Shown here: positions 4,769 to 46,270 of the stretch, one piece after another
Layout: each line of letters opens with the position of its first letter
Numbering within the stretch: the stretch's first letter is position 1
Sequence record: PZ379183.1
Direction: 5' to 3' (one strand)
DNA: 46,713 nucleotides
Source of the DNA: a phage
The notes under the pieces: model-generated
Databases searched by the model: none
Told to the model about the DNA's origin: nothing
Seen by the model: only the letters and a program-made list of their open reading frames with translations
Program-made: the position numbers and the translations under genes

Positions 4769-4792
4769 GCCCTCTTCTTGAGGGCTTTTTTT
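4769..4792 (+). terminator. rho-independent terminator
   Basis: GCCCTC-TTCTT-GAGGGC hairpin followed by T7 tract. Confidence 0.7.
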
Positions 4793-4839
4793 CGTTTGCT
4801 ATATGATATAATGCATCTCTAAACAAAGGAGGTAACAAA

Positions 4840-5364
4840 ATGAAAGACGAAAACTTCACCAGTCAGGCGCAAGAAAAGGTCCGCTCTGGCAACTTTAAAG
4901 CCATGTACAATAAAAAGTACTCAGACATTACAACGCTAGCCAAAAACCGAAGCATGACACCCGAACAGCTATTTGAATTCGCCGTGAAATACTTCTCATG
5001 GGCTGAGAACCAGGCAATCAAGGCAATCGAGACAGCCAGCTTCCAGGGTGTGGTAAAAGAGAGCCTGGTGCACAAACCACGAGTCTTCACGCTAACCGGA
5101 TTCTGCCTTTACTGCGGTGTCACCCATAGCGCCATCGAGAAATGGAGGAAGTCGGCTGGTTATGATGAGGTGATTGCGTTCATTGATTCCGTGATTCGCG
5201 AGCAGAAATACCAGCTTGCAGCATCTGGCATCATTAACCCTGGCATGATTTCCAAAGAGCTTGGAATCGACAAGCCGCAGGAGATTACCATCAGCAACAA
5301 CTCTTCAGCTAACGACGTCGATACGATGAAGGAAGCGCTGGAGTCTGTGATTAGTAAGCTGTAA
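4840..5364 (+). CDS. terminase small subunit (putative)
   Basis: AAGGAGG RBS; 174-aa ORF immediately upstream of the large terminase gene; assignment by position. Confidence 0.5.
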   Translation: MKDENFTSQAQEKVRSGNFKAMYNKKYSDITTLAKNRSMTPEQLFEFAVKYFSWAENQAIKAIETASFQGVVKESLVHKPRVFTLTGFCLYCGVTHSAIEKWRKSAGYDEVIAFIDSVIREQKYQLAASGIINPGMISKELGIDKPQEITISNNSSANDVDTMKEALESVISKL

Positions 5365-29814: not shown

Positions 29815-30252
29815 ATGAGTCATGTAATCACTGGTGTTATCCGTCGCGCTCCGTTCACTAAAGAAGGTCAGAATGCAAATGGCAGTTGGAAGATGTACGC
29901 GGTTGATTTAAGTGAGCGTTACAAGGATAAAGATGGTCAATCTCAGTATAGCAACTATCGTGCCGTCTTCTTCGCAAAGGAATCAATGCTTACATGGTAT
30001 AACGAAGCGTTTCAGGAAGGGAAGATTGTTAGCGTAAGTTGTGAGACGTTAGCATTAGATGTTCGAGATAAAGATGGCAAGACTTACATAACAATTAACA
30101 TGAACAATCCTCGTCTTGAGTTTAGTCAGCGTGGTGAGGGTGCACAGCAACATAAAAATACAGAGCAACAACAGCGCCATCAACCGCAACATCAACAGCA
30201 ACAACAACAACAACAACAGCAAAACACATTCGACGGAGATATTCCATTCTGA
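29815..30252 (+). CDS. single-stranded DNA-binding protein (SSB) with poly-Gln linker
   Basis: OB-fold-like N-terminal domain, Gln-rich linker, acidic C-terminal tail FDGDIPF matching the canonical SSB D-D-D-I-P-F tip. Confidence 0.8.
   Translation: MSHVITGVIRRAPFTKEGQNANGSWKMYAVDLSERYKDKDGQSQYSNYRAVFFAKESMLTWYNEAFQEGKIVSVSCETLALDVRDKDGKTYITINMNNPRLEFSQRGEGAQQHKNTEQQQRHQPQHQQQQQQQQQQNTFDGDIPF
30163..30225 (+). repeat. CAA/CAG trinucleotide repeat (poly-Gln coding)
   Basis: Runs of CAA and CAG codons inside the SSB linker. Confidence 0.8.
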
Positions 30253-32900: not shown

Positions 32901-33824
32901 TTAGTTTAGCAAGTCGTTTGCTTTGTACACTTTCTTTCGTATGCCTGTTTTAAATGACTCACCGTCATTAGGAACTACAACATCAACACCCCTATCGTCA
33001 GCAACAGCGAGTATATCGCTATCAGAATCACGGCAAGCAATTCTGAACTTCCTTGACTTGTCGCGGTGGATAACCATCTCCATATTGTAACAGGAGAAAG
33101 CAACAAACACTTCGCGCCCACCAGTAGCAAGGTGAACACGTATGCCATCAATATAATTGTCAACAACATAAGTATAACTATCATCCAGCTTAGAACCAAT
33201 AACGGAAACAGAATCACGAGTGTAATCACCAGCAAGGAACTTAACATTTGAATCCTCATCAATAAACATTACGTTACAGAACTCATCACTAAGCCCATCT
33301 TCATAAACCATCGAACAAGGGATTGCGTGAATCATTGAACAATTTTTAGCTATACCAACATCAAAACCAAACTCGTCATAAATACCCTCGTATGTCGTGA
33401 GTGGACTAGATTCAACTCGCTGAGTCCTCTCCATGACCTCAAGAACTTTCTTGTGGTCTACTTGAGCGCAAATTTTATAACGCTGCGTTCTTGATGCTTG
33501 CTTGTTTGCTTTAACTATAACCTCAATTGGTATTAAGTTCAGCCAGTCACCAAGCAAATTTACTGAATCAGCGAAGGACAATCCAGTGCACTTCATGACC
33601 CATCCTATACCGGAGTCACTTCCGCATTTCGAACAAACTGCCGCGCCATTTCCTTTTTCACTGCCTATTTCGTCGGTAAATCTGAATCTGTCAGTGCCAA
33701 AGCAGTATGGGCATGGTCCGTGCTTCTTACTTAGGTGTCTATCATTCCAACCAAGTTCCTTTGCATAAAATGATTTCCACAATCCGGCCATCTTAGGTAT
33801 AACTTCATTCTTATCGTAATTCAT
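32901..33824 (-). CDS. DNA primase (zinc-finger primase, putative)
   Basis: N-terminal zinc ribbon C-P-Y-C...C-S-K-C followed by acidic catalytic-like region; upstream of helicase in the replication block. Confidence 0.65.
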   Translation of the reverse strand: MNYDKNEVIPKMAGLWKSFYAKELGWNDRHLSKKHGPCPYCFGTDRFRFTDEIGSEKGNGAAVCSKCGSDSGIGWVMKCTGLSFADSVNLLGDWLNLIPIEVIVKANKQASRTQRYKICAQVDHKKVLEVMERTQRVESSPLTTYEGIYDEFGFDVGIAKNCSMIHAIPCSMVYEDGLSDEFCNVMFIDEDSNVKFLAGDYTRDSVSVIGSKLDDSYTYVVDNYIDGIRVHLATGGREVFVAFSCYNMEMVIHRDKSRKFRIACRDSDSDILAVADDRGVDVVVPNDGESFKTGIRKKVYKANDLLN

Positions 33825-34300
33825 TTGCTTAACCCGTGATTTTCGTGAAAGTTGTATTTTCCCTCTGCTTCAATTCTTACTTTATACGCCCGCTCTGGAG
33901 TATCGAAGTTCCCAAGGTGTAGCTGCTTGCCGTCAACCTTGATGTGAGCCTTAAATTTTCCGTGATTTAGCTTTGCCACTCCACAATAACCAGTTGTTGA
34001 TAAAACGCTAAGCTTGCAATTTCTTGAGTTACCTTGATTTGTTGTTACTCTTAGGTTTTCTATTCTGTTATCTAATTTGTTATGGTTTATATGATCAATG
34101 TAGTCGCCATTTTGAAGTTCTCCATTAAACATCTCCCACACAACTCTATGTACATAAGTCCTAAAGCCATTAACAGACACTTTGTAATAGCCAGATGTAG
34201 ATAGTGAGTTGCACTCATCGCCAACCTTAACACGTCTTGCAGTGCTAATCTTCCAATGCAATTTGCCATCTACATAGTAAAAATAATCATGCCAGTTCAT
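33821..34300 (-). CDS. HNH homing endonuclease
   Basis: YVHRVVW...IDHINHNKLDNRIENLR signature; paralogue of 14169..14651. Confidence 0.75.
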   Translation of the reverse strand: MNWHDYFYYVDGKLHWKISTARRVKVGDECNSLSTSGYYKVSVNGFRTYVHRVVWEMFNGELQNGDYIDHINHNKLDNRIENLRVTTNQGNSRNCKLSVLSTTGYCGVAKLNHGKFKAHIKVDGKQLHLGNFDTPERAYKVRIEAEGKYNFHENHGLSK

Positions 34301-34351: not shown

Positions 34352-34825
34352 TTACTCTTTAGCTTTTCGTGCGGCTTCGTTGGCAATCTTATTCTTGCGC
34401 CACGGTCGACAAGGTGGCTTTGTTGCTAGTTCAGCCTCAGTAACCACGCGTAGCATGTGGCGCTTCTTGCATCTAAGCGTCAGAGGCTTACCGTTACCGT
34501 CAAATTGCAGGTCTGGTCGGCAGAAAGTAGCTCGGAACCCTCCCTTATTTCTCTTGTACGCATTATGTGCTCGCTGGGCGCCTCGAGCCGAAATCATACC
34601 GCGATCAAACCATTGTTCTACAGTCTGGTGAGATACATTTAACTGCTTGGCGATATTGGCCTTCGTGCCGTAGAAGTCAAGAACCATCTCCAGACGAGCT
34701 CTTAGCCCAGCCTTTACTTCATCTTTCAATACGTAGTAGCCTGACGGTCGTTTGCGCTGTTTCTTGTCTTGCGTGCGGATGGTTCCGTTATTGCCGTTGA
34801 TAGTTCGCTTGTCAATTTCACACAT
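34352..34825 (-). CDS. Cro/YdaS-like HTH DNA-binding protein (putative regulator)
   Basis: GTKANIAKQLNVSHQTVEQWF helix-turn-helix segment, basic C-terminal region; first gene of a minus-strand operon from a divergent control region. Confidence 0.4.
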   Translation of the reverse strand: MCEIDKRTINGNNGTIRTQDKKQRKRPSGYYVLKDEVKAGLRARLEMVLDFYGTKANIAKQLNVSHQTVEQWFDRGMISARGAQRAHNAYKRNKGGFRATFCRPDLQFDGNGKPLTLRCKKRHMLRVVTEAELATKPPCRPWRKNKIANEAARKAKE

Positions 34826-34921: not shown

Positions 34922-36916
34922 ATGCTTCCAGTAGAGCGCTTAGTAGCCAACTTCGATCAAGAGAAGATTAAGCAGATTCAGAGAGATTACCAGTTTGGAG
35001 AAATCACTCCTTACCCATTCCAGTGTGTGACATTTGATGCAATTGGGAAGGCTATTGGAAAGTACGAGGCCCCATTCATCGCAGACCTGTCTGTATCTGC
35101 TGGTAAGACAATTATTCTTGCCATGATTGGAAAGCGCATGGAACAGCTTGGGCTTCCTTACATGGTGCTTTCTCGCCAGTCAGAAATTATCAGCCAGAAC
35201 GCTGAAGAGCTTCGTAACTTCGGCATCCGTAATAGCGTCTATTGCGCTGGCCTTAACGTTAAATCAGTTTACTACCCAACCATAGTGGCTAGTGAGGGCA
35301 CGGCTGCTAACGGCTTGTTTAAGGGCCTTGGTGACTATGTTCCTGCCGTTATTGCGATAGATGAATGTCATATGGTTGACCATATGGATATCGTAGAAGC
35401 TGAAGAGAACGAGGAAACATTCGAGCAGATGAGCACGAAGAAGGGTGAGATGGTTTTCAAGGATGGAGTGAATACCGGATTGCTCGGAACTGGTCGTGCG
35501 CAGTACACGCTAATCATTACTGAGATGAAGAGACGCTGCAAAGAGAAGTATGGTCGCGAACTACGCATCTTCGGTTTGACTGGCAGCCCGTACCGTAACA
35601 ACGACCACATTGTAGTTAGTAACCCAAATGTCCGTGGATTCTGGCGCAAAACTGTAATGCAAGTGCCAACCAGCTACCTTGTTGACTTGGGGTTCGTTGT
35701 TCCTACTGTCTACGGTGAAGTTGGTGATTTGGGCTACGACCTTAGTGAGTTCACTCCTGATGGAAGTGATGGGGTTAAGGACTTCAGCAAGAAAGAAATG
35801 GATGCGATGGCTGCAAAGATTCACGAAAACCAAACGATGACACAAAAGATAATGGGATTTGCTGCTAAGTTTATGGAAACAAGGAATGCTGCATTGGTAA
35901 CTTGCGCTGGCAAACAGCATTGCGAGGAGGCGGCAGCCGCACTTCCAGAAGGTGTTACTTGGGCGATAGTTACCAACTCCACTGGTGAGAAGAAGCGTAG
36001 AGAGATACTTGAGAAGGCAGCCAACGGAGAATATAAGTTCATATTTCAGATTGGTTGCCTCACAACTGGCGTAAACTGCCCCCCGTGGGATACAAGCATT
36101 ATCCTGAGGAAGGTTGGTAGCATTACTCTACTCATTCAGTTGCTTGGTCGTGGTATGCGTATCCTTAAGAAGAAGCACAAAGAAGCTGGAATGGTAAAAG
36201 ATGACCATGTTGTTCTTGATTTTGCTGGAACGCTTGATGATATGGCTGAACTTTACTTCGACCCAATTATAGAAGAGGTACAAGACCAGAAATTTAGGTC
36301 AGCAAGAAAGCGTGGTGATAAGCCAAGAATCTGTCCGGCATGCTCTTATGTGAACTCTCAATTAGCCAGGCGCTGCAATAACGTAATTGACTGGAAGCGC
36401 TGTGAGCACTTCTTTCAGTTTAGACTGTGTGAAGATATAGCGGACCCACAGACCAAAGCTATCATTAAGAAAGGATGCGGTGAGAAGAATGATATTGCAG
36501 CTAAGAATTGCAGATGCTGTGGTGAGATGCTCATAGACCCGAATGCTAAGTTATCAGGAAAAATGTATCGTAAGGGGGACTGGTTGCGAGTTTATGACTT
36601 CAAGATTGGGTTAACAAAGAACCAGTCAGGGATCGTTGCTTCATATGAGGTAATGGCTCATAGTGGAGATAAGTTCCGAGCTTATGAAACATTCTTCCCG
36701 GAGTCAGACCATCGTGTTTGTTCTGTCAAATGGAAGGCGTTTTGCTCAACTCACATCGAGAACAGGACTGAGGCTTTTAGGATTGGCAGATTGCGTAATG
36801 CTAAAATGATTATGACAAATGCACATCTTTTCCGTGCGCCGCTAAGGATTACGCACCGCAAGAATCAGAAGTCGCAAGATATTATCGCCAACAAATCATT
36901 TACGATGGAGGATTGA
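34922..36916 (+). CDS. ATP-dependent DNA helicase (superfamily 2, DEAD/DEAH-like)
   Basis: Walker A-like SAGKT, DECH box (AIDECHMVD), later helicase-type motifs and a C-terminal Cys-rich zinc-finger region. Confidence 0.75.
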   Translation: MLPVERLVANFDQEKIKQIQRDYQFGEITPYPFQCVTFDAIGKAIGKYEAPFIADLSVSAGKTIILAMIGKRMEQLGLPYMVLSRQSEIISQNAEELRNFGIRNSVYCAGLNVKSVYYPTIVASEGTAANGLFKGLGDYVPAVIAIDECHMVDHMDIVEAEENEETFEQMSTKKGEMVFKDGVNTGLLGTGRAQYTLIITEMKRRCKEKYGRELRIFGLTGSPYRNNDHIVVSNPNVRGFWRKTVMQVPTSYLVDLGFVVPTVYGEVGDLGYDLSEFTPDGSDGVKDFSKKEMDAMAAKIHENQTMTQKIMGFAAKFMETRNAALVTCAGKQHCEEAAAALPEGVTWAIVTNSTGEKKRREILEKAANGEYKFIFQIGCLTTGVNCPPWDTSIILRKVGSITLLIQLLGRGMRILKKKHKEAGMVKDDHVVLDFAGTLDDMAELYFDPIIEEVQDQKFRSARKRGDKPRICPACSYVNSQLARRCNNVIDWKRCEHFFQFRLCEDIADPQTKAIIKKGCGEKNDIAAKNCRCCGEMLIDPNAKLSGKMYRKGDWLRVYDFKIGLTKNQSGIVASYEVMAHSGDKFRAYETFFPESDHRVCSVKWKAFCSTHIENRTEAFRIGRLRNAKMIMTNAHLFRAPLRITHRKNQKSQDIIANKSFTMED

Positions 36917-41833: not shown

Positions 41834-42216
41834 AGGCTGCGTTAATTGCTGCGGTAATTATACTTTCTGGTTGCTCGGCAACATCTGCGCTGACCGGGTT
41901 GATTGGTAGTAGGCCAGAGATTAGCGCTCAAGCAGGTGCGGAGAATAACAAGGTTGGAGTGGGGATAACTAATAAGGTTGATTCAAGTTCCAGCGCAAAG
42001 GCTGAAGTGAAGAACTCTAAGGTTGACACTCTTGATAGTTCAAGCGGTAAAAAGACTTCTGATAACTCAATCAAGGCATCAACAATCACGGCTGAGAAGA
42101 TTGAAATCACCAACAATGATTCGTCTGCAATCCCGTGGATTGGGAGTGGAATCATGTTTTGCGTCATCATCATTCTGCTCTTAATGATATTCAGGAAAAA
42201 CAAAAAAGCCCCGTAA
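41830..42216 (+). CDS. unimolecular spanin (u-spanin, T1 gp11-like)
   Basis: N-terminal lipoprotein signal with lipobox LSGC and a C-terminal transmembrane segment (IPWIGSGIMFCVIIILLLMIF); immediately after endolysin. Confidence 0.65.
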   Translation: MKAALIAAVIILSGCSATSALTGLIGSRPEISAQAGAENNKVGVGITNKVDSSSSAKAEVKNSKVDTLDSSSGKKTSDNSIKASTITAEKIEITNNDSSAIPWIGSGIMFCVIIILLLMIFRKNKKAP

Positions 42217-42229
42217 TGGGGCTATTTTT
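42202..42229. terminator. bidirectional rho-independent terminator
   Basis: AGCCCC-GTAAT-GGGGCT hairpin flanked by A6 and T5 tracts between convergent operons. Confidence 0.75.
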
Positions 42230-42563
42230 ATGCAAACAATTCGTCATCACTCATGTTGGCTATGTTCATCATCTCACTGACGTAATCACTGGACCTACCT
42301 TCAAGGCTCATGAATTCAAACTGAAATGGTCGCTTAATTGAACCCTTACACCAGTACACTCCATTAACTCCATCAAGATACCCAGCCGTAAGCATTCTCG
42401 CCATAAACTCCTTCGAGCAACTTGAGGCAAAATACCTTTCATCAACCCCGGCAGCCTTGGCCATCCTTGCGCAATCCTTGTGCTTATAGATGAATCTTGC
42501 CAGGTGCTGGCGGTTGAAGTTCTTGTATCCTTCGCAGAAATTATACAGGTCGAGCAGGTACAT
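42228..42563 (-). CDS. hypothetical protein (111 aa)
   Basis: Last gene of the minus-strand right-end operon. Confidence 0.45.
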   Translation of the reverse strand: MYLLDLYNFCEGYKNFNRQHLARFIYKHKDCARMAKAAGVDERYFASSCSKEFMARMLTAGYLDGVNGVYWCKGSIKRPFQFEFMSLEGRSSDYVSEMMNIANMSDDELFA

Positions 42564-42566
42564 AAA

Positions 42567-44165
42567 TTACCCCAGCAATCGTGGATTAATGTAAATTTTA
42601 TCACCAATCAGGCATGTGTAGTTTTTCTCATCAAGCATAGGAATCAAGTGGTCCTTAATGCGAGTCATAATTCCAGCCTGAGCTTCAAAAGGTTTAACCT
42701 TGCGTGCAGCCTCATACAACGAGCGAACACCAACAACACCTTTACCATTCTTGCCCTGCTTAATCAGGATATCAACCAGCTTGTTCATCTCGGCATTGTC
42801 ACCAGCATGACCAGCAGCACTAGCGGATGATAAATAAGTCTTGCTTAGTTCGTTGAAAATCATAACCGCTTCCTGCATTGTATCCAGTTCAATCTCTCTT
42901 GACTTTTGAGGGCTGGATCCGGCTGGTGAGAACCAGTTACGAATTACGTGCAGAACAGAAGCGATGCGGATTGCTTGCTTATCAAACTTACCAAGAGCAC
43001 CGCGCAACATTGTGTGAGAATACTTGCCACCATCACCAAGATGAGGCTCCATCTCTTGACGAGCGCGGTTAAGGTAACGCATTGATGACGCGCTTACAGT
43101 AAGTTTCACTTCAACTTCATTCATAATCTCATGAACAAGACGGAAATAGTCTGCTTTCAGGCCGCCATCAATAGCCTCATAGGTTGAATCACCATTTTCA
43201 TCAACAAATACACGGTCGCCAAGAAATGATTTTTCACGCACCAGAAGGAAACGCTCAGATACACCAATACCACGCGCACCAGCATTCATAATGGCATTGA
43301 TTGTTTCATCCTGAGCAATTACGGAGATGCATCCCATAGCCACAAAGCTCATGTTATTTTCTGCGTTCGCACGGGCAATTGACACATTACCTGCATCCCA
43401 TGCTTTCAGCACGAGCTCGCTGTTCGTTTTCTTCGAGCCATCACCGTAAGTCATGCCTAACAGTGAGTTGACGCTAGTAGCCTCATCAGAGATTACCGCA
43501 AAATTACCCTGGCGATTGTTGATTCGCGCAAGACCTTCCGGAGTAGTATCGGAGACAGGGAATACTATATCGCATAGCTTCTCGAGCTTCTCCTCTAAAT
43601 CCTCCTTCTCCTCAAAAAGTGAAGCCATTTCAGAAGGTGATTTCTCCTGCTTCATCTCTTTAGCCAGAGCGGACAGTTTAGCCATAATCTTTTTTCGATC
43701 ACGTTTACGTACTTCATTCAACCGCTCAGTCTCAGCAATCATCGGCGCAATTGATAGCGAGTTAATGGCTGATTTACCAGTTGAAGGCGGCTGACTTGTT
43801 ACCACGTACAAAGATGTTGGCTGTTGGGTTCCATGATACTCGACAGTAAAACGCCCAAGCATTGCAGCAGAAACACAACCAAGAAAGTGCATGTAAGCTG
43901 ACGACTCAGGGAACTGAACCGAGCGAGCGATATTAGCCGATAGCTTACCAACAACATCAATATCATTACCGAGTGAGATTACTGGATACTTATCATTACC
44001 TGTATCAATCTCGACAGGTGCTTTCCAGAACGATTGAGACTGTCGATAGCCATTGGCATTAATAGCCACGCGAAGCGGTGGTAGGTTGTCATTGGCAGCG
44101 ATCGCCATAACTTGCTCAACAGATAGTTTATCTTCATTGAAATCAAACATTACTTCTCTCCGCAT
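42567..44165 (-). CDS. P-loop NTPase of unknown function (Walker A and B)
   Basis: Walker A SQPPSTGKS and Walker B-like FAVISDEA; 532 aa; early-type operon position. Confidence 0.5.
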   Translation of the reverse strand: MRREVMFDFNEDKLSVEQVMAIAANDNLPPLRVAINANGYRQSQSFWKAPVEIDTGNDKYPVISLGNDIDVVGKLSANIARSVQFPESSAYMHFLGCVSAAMLGRFTVEYHGTQQPTSLYVVTSQPPSTGKSAINSLSIAPMIAETERLNEVRKRDRKKIMAKLSALAKEMKQEKSPSEMASLFEEKEDLEEKLEKLCDIVFPVSDTTPEGLARINNRQGNFAVISDEATSVNSLLGMTYGDGSKKTNSELVLKAWDAGNVSIARANAENNMSFVAMGCISVIAQDETINAIMNAGARGIGVSERFLLVREKSFLGDRVFVDENGDSTYEAIDGGLKADYFRLVHEIMNEVEVKLTVSASSMRYLNRARQEMEPHLGDGGKYSHTMLRGALGKFDKQAIRIASVLHVIRNWFSPAGSSPQKSREIELDTMQEAVMIFNELSKTYLSSASAAGHAGDNAEMNKLVDILIKQGKNGKGVVGVRSLYEAARKVKPFEAQAGIMTRIKDHLIPMLDEKNYTCLIGDKIYINPRLLG

Positions 44166-44210
44166 TGTTTCTGAGCGGCCATTATATCAATAGCCGCTTA
44201 TAATGCATTA

Positions 44211-46159: not shown

Positions 46160-46270
46160 GATTTATAGATTGTTGCAGCTATTGCAATGATTCATCTCAT
46201 TATTGCACATATAGCAATATTGCATCGAATGCAATGATGTTTTTGATTGTTGCAGAATTTGCAATGATCG
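46160..46270. repeat. array of TTGCAATGAT direct repeats and TTGCA-based palindromes
   Basis: ATTGTTGCAG-N-TTGCAATGAT at 46160-46185 and 46244-46270; ATTGCACATATAGCAAT and TTGCATCGAATGCAA palindromes between them. Confidence 0.65.

Follow-up and report, generated by a model that had tools for sequence, protein, structure and literature searches.

A DUF3987-family, MCM-like AAA+ protein as the probable replicative helicase of a T1-like phage

A stretch of phage DNA of 46,713 nucleotides (sequence record PZ379183.1), analysed at its full length and called the window here, carries on its minus strand a large gene for a P-loop ATPase. It was found that this protein belongs to the DUF3987 family of helicases. 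Its function is already catalogued as that of the T1 gp09-type DUF3987 helicases, and it is not an orphan ATPase. The gene probably encodes the replicative ring helicase of the phage, an MCM-like AAA+ motor.

Gene, family and predicted fold

The minus-strand open reading frame (ORF) 42567..44165 has 532 codons, with SQPPSTGKS at residues 124-132 and FAVISDEA at residues 222-229. A chance ORF is ruled out by this length and by the hundreds of homologues found at E=0. The first ATG (44165) has no Shine-Dalgarno sequence, and eight of eight relatives have ATA, ACA or GCA at the same site. The second ATG (44150) and its GGAGAG Shine-Dalgarno sequence are invariant across the compared relatives (GGAGAC being the one exception), and the homologues are 522-528 residues in length. 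Thus, the true coding sequence (CDS) is 42567..44150, encoding 527 residues. A preliminary description of this DNA, made from the sequence alone, had spoken of a 532-aa protein, which is right for the number of codons in the ORF and wrong for the product. Residue numbers throughout this text nevertheless follow the 532-aa numbering from the first ATG. A 111-codon ORF (42228..42563, minus strand) begins 3 nt past the end of the helicase ORF; both this gene and the minus-strand unit of small ORFs, as described before, are seen in the ORF list.

42567..44150, minus strand: helicase CDS, DUF3987 family, MCM-like AAA+ (ORF, Pfam DUF3987, PHROG 2373, start by Shine-Dalgarno and conservation, T1 ST9/gp09 orthologue)
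44156..44161, minus strand: Shine-Dalgarno GGAGAG for ATG 44150, conserved among relatives

Residues 86-438 match Pfam DUF3987 (PF13148, profile positions 3-352 of 364) with E=2.7e-40 and 139.1 bits, the curated gathering cut-off being 27 bits. DUF3987 had been named beforehand as a family to check. The protein also matches PHROG 2373 'DNA helicase' end to end (E=7.8e-255), and PHROG 7327 separately matches its C-terminal domain. NCBIfam gave no family for it. Homology searches placed the protein in the DUF3987 helicase family instead of a structural or packaging family, and in the Pfam and PHROG comparisons it is distinct from the terminase, the primase and the superfamily 2 (SF2) helicase of the window, as the preliminary description had said.

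By tblastn, the helicase was found in 923 phage records, near full length in 903 of them. The T1 orthologue (57% identity) has the locus tag ST9 and is named gp09 in other records, and the highest identity of an orthologue is 98%, to phiA2-1. The region shares 94% identity with Escherichia phages ES and AN_ECEAS, and its identity to many Braunvirinae (Drexlerviridae, T1-like siphoviruses) is 77-89%. An exhaustive profile search retrieved 6,069 representatives (clustered at 50% identity), of which 3,652 reached E<=1e-10 and 388 reached E<=1e-30. The DUF3987-type family is large and widespread. In deposited records, the gene product is variously called 'hypothetical', 'DUF3987 domain-containing', 'putative ATPase' or 'DNA helicase', the last being the RefSeq name for T1 and IME542.

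An AlphaFold2 model of the helicase, made from 26 orthologues, is of high confidence (pLDDT 86.6, pTM 0.85). Almost all of the top 50 Foldseek matches were Mcm2-7 or archaeal MCM (best E=3e-6), and by structure comparison the AAA+ core fold is closest to MCM. Further structural neighbours are, in this order, RavA, BchI and ComM, and then the mobile-element helicases Cch (8.6), SaPI5 (8.0) and SaPIbov1 Rep (7.8). Since no MCM match was obtained at the sequence level, the protein should be called MCM-like, not an MCM. The other helicase and loader types proposed for checking did not come out closest. The SF3 core (D5, P4 alpha, Rep, E1) is neither the closest fold nor the closest family. As for loaders and initiators (DnaC/IstB or Cdc6/ORC), the initiator-clade core scores lower than MCM; the ORC/Cdc6 matches span just ~80-100 residues, and the Foldseek list has a single Cdc6/Orc1 match, at rank 37 with TM 0.15. 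For the DnaB type, there is no match of the helicase to Pfam DnaB_C, and the top structural neighbours are AAA+, not RecA-fold. Thus, membership of DUF3987 and of PHROG 2373, the RefSeq name and the MCM-like fold together overturn the earlier view of a protein of unknown function without resemblance to helicases. The parts of the predicted protein are as follows.

Residues 10-46, minus strand: short helical N-terminus (AlphaFold2 model)
Residues 120-124, minus strand: strand 1, followed by the P-loop (AlphaFold2 model)
43770..43796, minus strand: Walker A/P-loop, S124-QPPSTGK131-S132; Q125, P126, P127, S128, G130, K131 and S132 are invariant in the 26 orthologues
43578..43733, minus strand: long helical hairpin, charged and coiled-coil-like, inserted at about residues 145-196, after the Walker A helix and before strand 2; predicted helices 131-171 and 177-196, variable in distant members
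43479..43502, minus strand: Walker B, F222-AVISDE228-A229, on model strand 221-226; S226 and E228 do not vary, not even among distant members
43305..43397, minus strand: predicted beta-hairpin 257-263/272-278 feeding strand 4 (strand to 284), with R265 close to the tip and VIAQ285DE where the strand ends (DSSP of the model and conservation)
43248..43259, minus strand: S303-E-R305-F306, directly ahead of strand 5, where MCM has its 'SRF' arginine finger; distant members all keep R305
Residues 307-310, minus strand: strand 5 (AlphaFold2 model)
42813..43166, minus strand: predicted alpha-helical lid, residues 334-451, with LRG..GK393xDKQ (helices 334-348, 359-376, 385-392, 394-410 and 427-451)
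42573..42800, minus strand: predicted C-terminal winged-helix-like domain, residues 456-531 (model; PHROG 7327)

Conservation was assessed in the 26 orthologues and, separately, in 25 distant family members at 23-40% identity. Walker A, E228, VIAQDE (282-287) and LRG..GKxDKQ (387-396) are invariant motifs in the orthologues, and SERF (303-306) is invariant or nearly so. In the lid, R388, G389, G392, K393, D395 and K396 do not vary. The Walker B residue D227 is replaced by Ala in 4 of the 26, and E228 is present in all. In the distant members, the invariant set is reduced to K131, E228, R265, Q285, R305, K393 and a few structural residues; P126 is likewise invariant there. The statement that the protein is a P-loop ATPase was correct. 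Both Walker motifs reported for the family (A, GxxxxGKS/T; B, DExx-like) are present, and both K131 and E228 are invariant. Judging from the topology of the model, R265 may be the tip of a pre-sensor-1-type hairpin and Q285 may lie at the sensor-1 position, R305 would be an arginine finger of the MCM 'SRF' type, and K393 is a lid residue and a candidate for sensor 2. A PADLOC match to JetC/MukB (E=0.028) covers residues 145-202 only and was rejected as a spurious coiled-coil match.

Role in replication

Is this protein the helicase of the phage replication fork? The window has a separate primase gene, which is a probable partner.

32901..33824, minus strand: standalone T7-gp4-type primase with zinc ribbon and primase core (Pfam Zn_Ribbon_Prim E=3.6e-10; PHROG 510 'DNA primase' E=1.4e-89), probable partner of the helicase

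PHROG 510 is covered at positions 11-345 of 667, that is, in its N-terminal half only, and thus the primase lacks a helicase half. The other helicase of the window (34922..36916) is of SF2 and is followed by a VRR-NUC nuclease. Pfam and PHROG annotation of the window phage, together with the relative IME542, revealed no polymerase and no other ring helicase; IME542, which is fully annotated, lacks a DNA polymerase as well as any DnaB- or DnaC-like gene. Because there is neither a phage DNA polymerase nor another ring helicase, the protein would work with the separate primase, a phage single-stranded DNA-binding protein (SSB) and the host DNA polymerase III (Pol III).

The partnership with the primase is suggested by relatives of the helicase. 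In the protein P0181, the domain is fused with a DnaG-type CHC2 zinc-finger primase (E=1e-141 against the helicase profile, positions 10-523); in P0266, it is fused with PriCT-2 (E=1.7e-65 against the same profile); and in P0216, it is fused with a DnaB N-terminal domain. The orthologue and the primase gene are neighbours in Aeromonas phage Avpx2 and in E. coli phage C1. In P0216, the DnaB N-terminal (primase-interaction) domain stands ahead of an MCM-like AAA+ core, making a chimera of bacterial-type and archaeal/eukaryotic-type helicase parts.

These traits fit what is known of the family. Kazlauskas et al. 2016 described phage DUF3987 proteins as divergent SF6, MCM-related helicases and predicted them to be replicative; the protein of phage Corndog was tied to MCM by HHsearch with a probability of 98%, fusion to AEP or DnaG primases or a location next to them and a winged helix-turn-helix at the C-terminus were reported for the family, and N4 dns, which is essential for replication, was assigned to it (PMC4889955). 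Both the primase fusions or adjacency in relatives and the C-terminal winged-helix-like domain recur here. A 2018 study likewise predicted primase-fused DUF3987 domains to be replicative helicases (PMC5862659). The only characterised DUF3987 helicase is AgaPH (PriCT-DUF3987), from a pAgo-carrying mobile element; purified in 2025, it is an oligomeric 5'->3' helicase which depends on ATP or dATP and on Walker A/B and binds its primase-polymerase (PMC11724360). On the other hand, the 2024 re-annotation of the T1-like phage TLS treated the SF2 gene alone as 'the helicase' and found no origin (PMC11447400).

The likely mechanism is as follows. The helicase would assemble into a ring, presumably a hexamer, and ATP hydrolysis would drive its translocation on single-stranded DNA, unwinding the phage genome at the replication fork. 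The likely catalytic residues are K131 of Walker A, E228 of Walker B, Q285 at the sensor-1 position and R305, which would act in trans as the arginine finger. Its partners would be the separate, helicase-less primase of the T7-gp4 type, the SSB of the phage and the Pol III holoenzyme of the host. Candidates for binding DNA or a partner while the helicase is loaded are its C-terminal winged helix and, possibly, the 111-aa winged-helix protein encoded downstream. The analysis shows the family membership, the MCM-like fold, the conserved residues of catalytic type, the primase fusions and adjacency in relatives and the lack of another replicative helicase; from these, I infer the hexamer, the helicase activity of this orthologue, the fork role and the partners.

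A motor for recombination, repair or restart was also considered. Such a motor would perform MCM8/9- or ComM-like branch migration or D-loop extension for recombination-dependent replication and the making of concatemers, with the host DnaB at the forks. The phage indeed has a strong recombination module, comprising ERF, a PDDEXK exonuclease and VRR-NUC, and the dependence of T1 on host elongation genes, as reported in classical work, would also speak for such a motor. However, fusion of close relatives to primases or to the primase-binding domain of DnaB is a hallmark of fork helicases, the phage-encoded primase needs a helicase partner, the SF2 helicase and VRR-NUC pair is a better candidate for fork remodelling, and the N4 member of DUF3987 is essential for replication (PMC4889955). 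A dedicated recombination motor is thus decidedly unlikely.

Several points weigh against a replicative helicase of the MCM type. The relationship to MCM is one of fold only: Pfam MCM (PF00493) does not match the helicase at E<=1, and a PDB sequence search, with the single protein and then with a 26-sequence profile, gave no meaningful chain, so the link rests on the fold searches and on the published HHsearch result. The MCM N-terminal OB-fold/zinc domain was not found, residues 1-102 being all-helical, without a Cys/His cluster and without a Pfam match. The helix-2 insert beta-hairpin was not seen either, as helix 209-219 is unbroken in the DSSP string of the model, from which this insert and the pre-sensor-1 hairpin were judged; the sole large insertion in the model is the helical one (145-196), located before strand 2. 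The polarity differs between AgaPH (5'->3') and MCM (3'->5'). In classical work, T1 DNA synthesis was reportedly dependent on host elongation genes; if host DnaB is among the required genes, this protein is not the sole fork helicase. Finally, about 9 kb separate the gene from the module of primase and SF2 helicase, and its neighbours are small ORFs of the early type.

This location, among small ORFs of unknown function in an early-type minus-strand unit and far from the annotated replication module, is what would speak for a host-takeover, superinfection-exclusion or anti-defence ATPase, as had been proposed. Such a role is highly improbable. PADLOC gave spurious matches only, the fold is that of a helicase, and primases are fused or adjacent to it in relatives. 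Moreover, the gene is universally conserved as a core gene in Drexlerviridae and beyond, and its catalytic residues do not vary, which sets it apart from the typical accessory or counter-defence gene. Of the roles listed in the preliminary description, 'replication initiator/loader' came closest to the outcome, and the takeover and exclusion or anti-defence roles were not borne out. The papers on retron-Eco11, Druantia/Zorya, TR2 and Avs (defence triggers, escape mutants) concern other proteins.

Transcription unit and palindrome array

Ahead of the helicase gene on the minus strand come eight small ORFs, and nearly all of them fall into PHROGs without a known function. Given the uninterrupted array of minus-strand ORFs, the helicase gene plausibly belongs to an early-type unit starting from the divergent region at ~46.1-46.7 kb; the preliminary description had likewise put it under the right-end control region. 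The gene order is common to AugustePiccard, TR2, IME542 and T1: small ORFs, the helicase gene, a gene of ~111-135 aa, and a terminator facing the lysis cassette. The convergent cassette encodes holin, endolysin and spanin.

44174..44198, minus strand: hairpin (11-bp stem) with the extended -10 TGATATAAT (44181-44189) inside it, located 24 nt upstream of the helicase start; candidate for a promoter close to the gene, an RNA element or both
42228..42563, minus strand: 111-aa winged-helix protein, co-transcribed, T1 ST10 orthologue; its flexible tail (MSDDELF) is acidic and aromatic
42207..42223, both strands: bidirectional intrinsic terminator, ending the helicase transcription unit and common to the convergent lysis cassette; T1 has an annotated terminator at the equivalent place

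The 96-nt leader of the helicase gene is 87-93% conserved in 80 records, at least equal to the coding sequence. Its extended -10 (TGATATAAT) is a perfect one and is invariant in nine phages. The hairpin around it has a fold energy of -19.4 kcal/mol (z=-3.0). In the nine phages, 98% of the cells of the stem are paired; with the partners slid, the share is 29-60%. A change from C:G to A:U compensates one pair in full, and 493 of 500 shuffles score lower for covariation. Conservation and context thus suggest that the helicase gene may have its own promoter. A generic sigma-70 promoter scan of the helicase region found 8 where 12.5 were expected, and the bare pattern TGNTATAAT was found 3 times against 1.8 expected; because neither is enriched over chance, the promoter is proposed here as a candidate. 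The same extended -10 nonamer is seen far away on the plus strand. In 4770-4842, a strong intrinsic terminator (GCCCTCTTCTTGAGGGC and a T-run) is followed by TGATATAAT (4804-4812), an AAGGAGG Shine-Dalgarno sequence and the small-terminase gene. This segment is likely the start of the late/packaging operon.

The 111-aa protein is 54% identical to T1 ST10 and is confined to Drexlerviridae-type contigs. Its model is a winged helix, with helices 2-12, 18-27, 31-38 and 42-60, a wing at 63-72 and a tail of low confidence. This is a generic fold, giving no specific function. In the tail MSDDELF, D106 and F110 are invariant, and the motif lies at the extreme C-terminus in the shortest orthologues; it looks like a short linear interaction motif. 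Comparison rejected the 111-aa protein both as a paralogue of the C-terminal winged helix of the helicase and as a homologue of the small ORF after the helicase gene in phage C1. A weak PADLOC match to Csx26 (E=0.016) was also rejected.

The divergent non-coding region that heads the minus-strand unit holds an array of palindromes. Four copies of TTGCA-N5-(T/A)GCAA start at 46173, 46203, 46220 and 46250 (spacing 30, 17 and 30), so that the array spans 46173-46264; they are the only perfect matches in the whole window. After the array, the segment 46420-46580 has a GC content of ~30% and abounds in direct and inverted repeats of the TATA type. Three perfect copies of the palindrome are present in TR2, and the region is 73-98% conserved in Braunvirinae, carrying no annotation anywhere. 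The array could be an operator for the Cro-like regulator encoded at 34352..34825, or an origin consisting of iterons and an unwinding element.

Could the helicase load itself? A self-loading initiator-helicase would recognise the origin via its C-terminal winged helix (perhaps together with the 111-aa protein), melt it and load itself, as do SaPI Rep, P4 alpha and SCCmec Cch. This would refine the assignment as a replicative helicase and does not exclude it. No DnaA-, O/P- or DnaC-like initiator or loader is encoded, a winged-helix domain is predicted in the helicase, a gene for a winged-helix partner is always directly downstream, and the array of four TTGCA-N5-TGCAA palindromes and the 30%-GC stretch lie ~2 kb upstream at the head of the operon. 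However, a search in and beside the helicase gene found no iterons, the palindrome array lies in a divergent promoter region and may with at least equal likelihood serve the Cro-like regulator as its operator, and T1-like phages, having ERF and an exonuclease, may start replication by recombination. Self-loading is therefore possible, but I put it forward tentatively.

Another element of the phage replisome may be encoded by the ORF 29815-30252 (plus strand), which comes after the ERF recombinase gene. It has no Pfam match, a poly-Gln linker and the end ...NTFDGDIPF. The C-terminal tip of E. coli SSB is DDDIPF, which this end closely mimics. By synteny with TLS Gp53/Gp54, the ORF is assigned to the phage SSB, and the SSB-like tail suggests recruitment of host SSB-interacting proteins such as Pol III chi. 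In the most elaborate scenario, the helicase, its winged helix and the 111-aa protein would form a self-loading origin machine on the TTGCA-N5-TGCAA array and the AT-rich stretch. It would run a hybrid replisome with an MCM-like motor of archaeal/eukaryotic style, a T7-type primase, an SSB with a host-mimicking DIPF tail and the bacterial Pol III, perhaps moving 5'->3', opposite to MCM. This complete scenario is rather unlikely. If true, its replisome architecture would have no described counterpart among the model phages, and the long-missing T1 origin would have been identified.

The replication genes are accompanied by homing endonucleases. An HNH homing-endonuclease gene (33821-34300, minus strand) is wedged between the primase gene and the gene of the Cro-like regulator in the window, another HNH gene (ST8) abuts the helicase gene in T1, and an HNH gene adjoins the helicase gene in AN_ECEAS. 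Judging from these gene neighbourhoods, the replication genes of T1-like phages appear to be frequent targets of homing endonucleases.

Significance and comparison with known systems

The main effect of this finding is the correction of an annotation gap. T1-like phages are common contaminants in laboratories and fermentation and are candidates for phage therapy, yet little work has been devoted to how they replicate. Their MCM-like motor, combined with a T7-type primase and Pol III of the host, merits biochemical attention. If the fork role is confirmed, T1-like phages would offer a tractable E. coli system for the coupling of an AAA+ MCM-type motor to a DnaG/T7-type primase and host Pol III, and they would also be suited to settle the translocation polarity of DUF3987 helicases.

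The MCM proteins (archaeal MCM, Mcm2-7 and MCM8/9; SF6 AAA+) are only 10-16% identical to the phage helicase. The phage protein lacks the N-terminal OB/zinc-finger domain, has a long helical hairpin after the Walker A helix and has no evident helix-2 insert; its sensor 1 would be Gln, which is usually Asn in MCM. It is presumably a homo-oligomer and is presumably partnered with the bacterial Pol III. The staphylococcal SCCmec Cch (DUF927) and the Rep primase-helicases of SaPI5 and SaPIbov1 belong to other Pfam families and are clearly more distant than MCM. Cch and the SaPI Reps have defined origins beside their genes, whereas none was found beside the phage helicase gene.

T7 gp4 and DnaB (SF4) would do the same job, as a ring helicase with a primase of the zinc-ribbon/TOPRIM type. 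In contrast to their RecA/DnaB_C fold, the phage helicase is AAA+, with no SF4 proteins among the top structural matches of the model, and the phage primase and helicase are encoded by separate genes. AgaPH shares DUF3987, Walker A/B and a small C-terminal domain with the phage helicase, and P0266 has the very PriCT-2 and DUF3987 architecture of AgaPH. The phage protein lacks PriCT and has a short helical N-terminus instead, and the primase of the AgaPH system is an AEP, while that of the phage is DnaG/T7-type and is encoded 9 kb away.

The closest counterparts are T1 gp09 (ST9), Rtp67, IME542 gp18 and Bas01_0057. Nothing substantive distinguishes the window from them; a further in-frame ATG, which is not conserved, is seen in the window 15 nt upstream of the true start. 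All of them are full-length orthologues and share the gene order, with an ST10-like winged-helix gene downstream.

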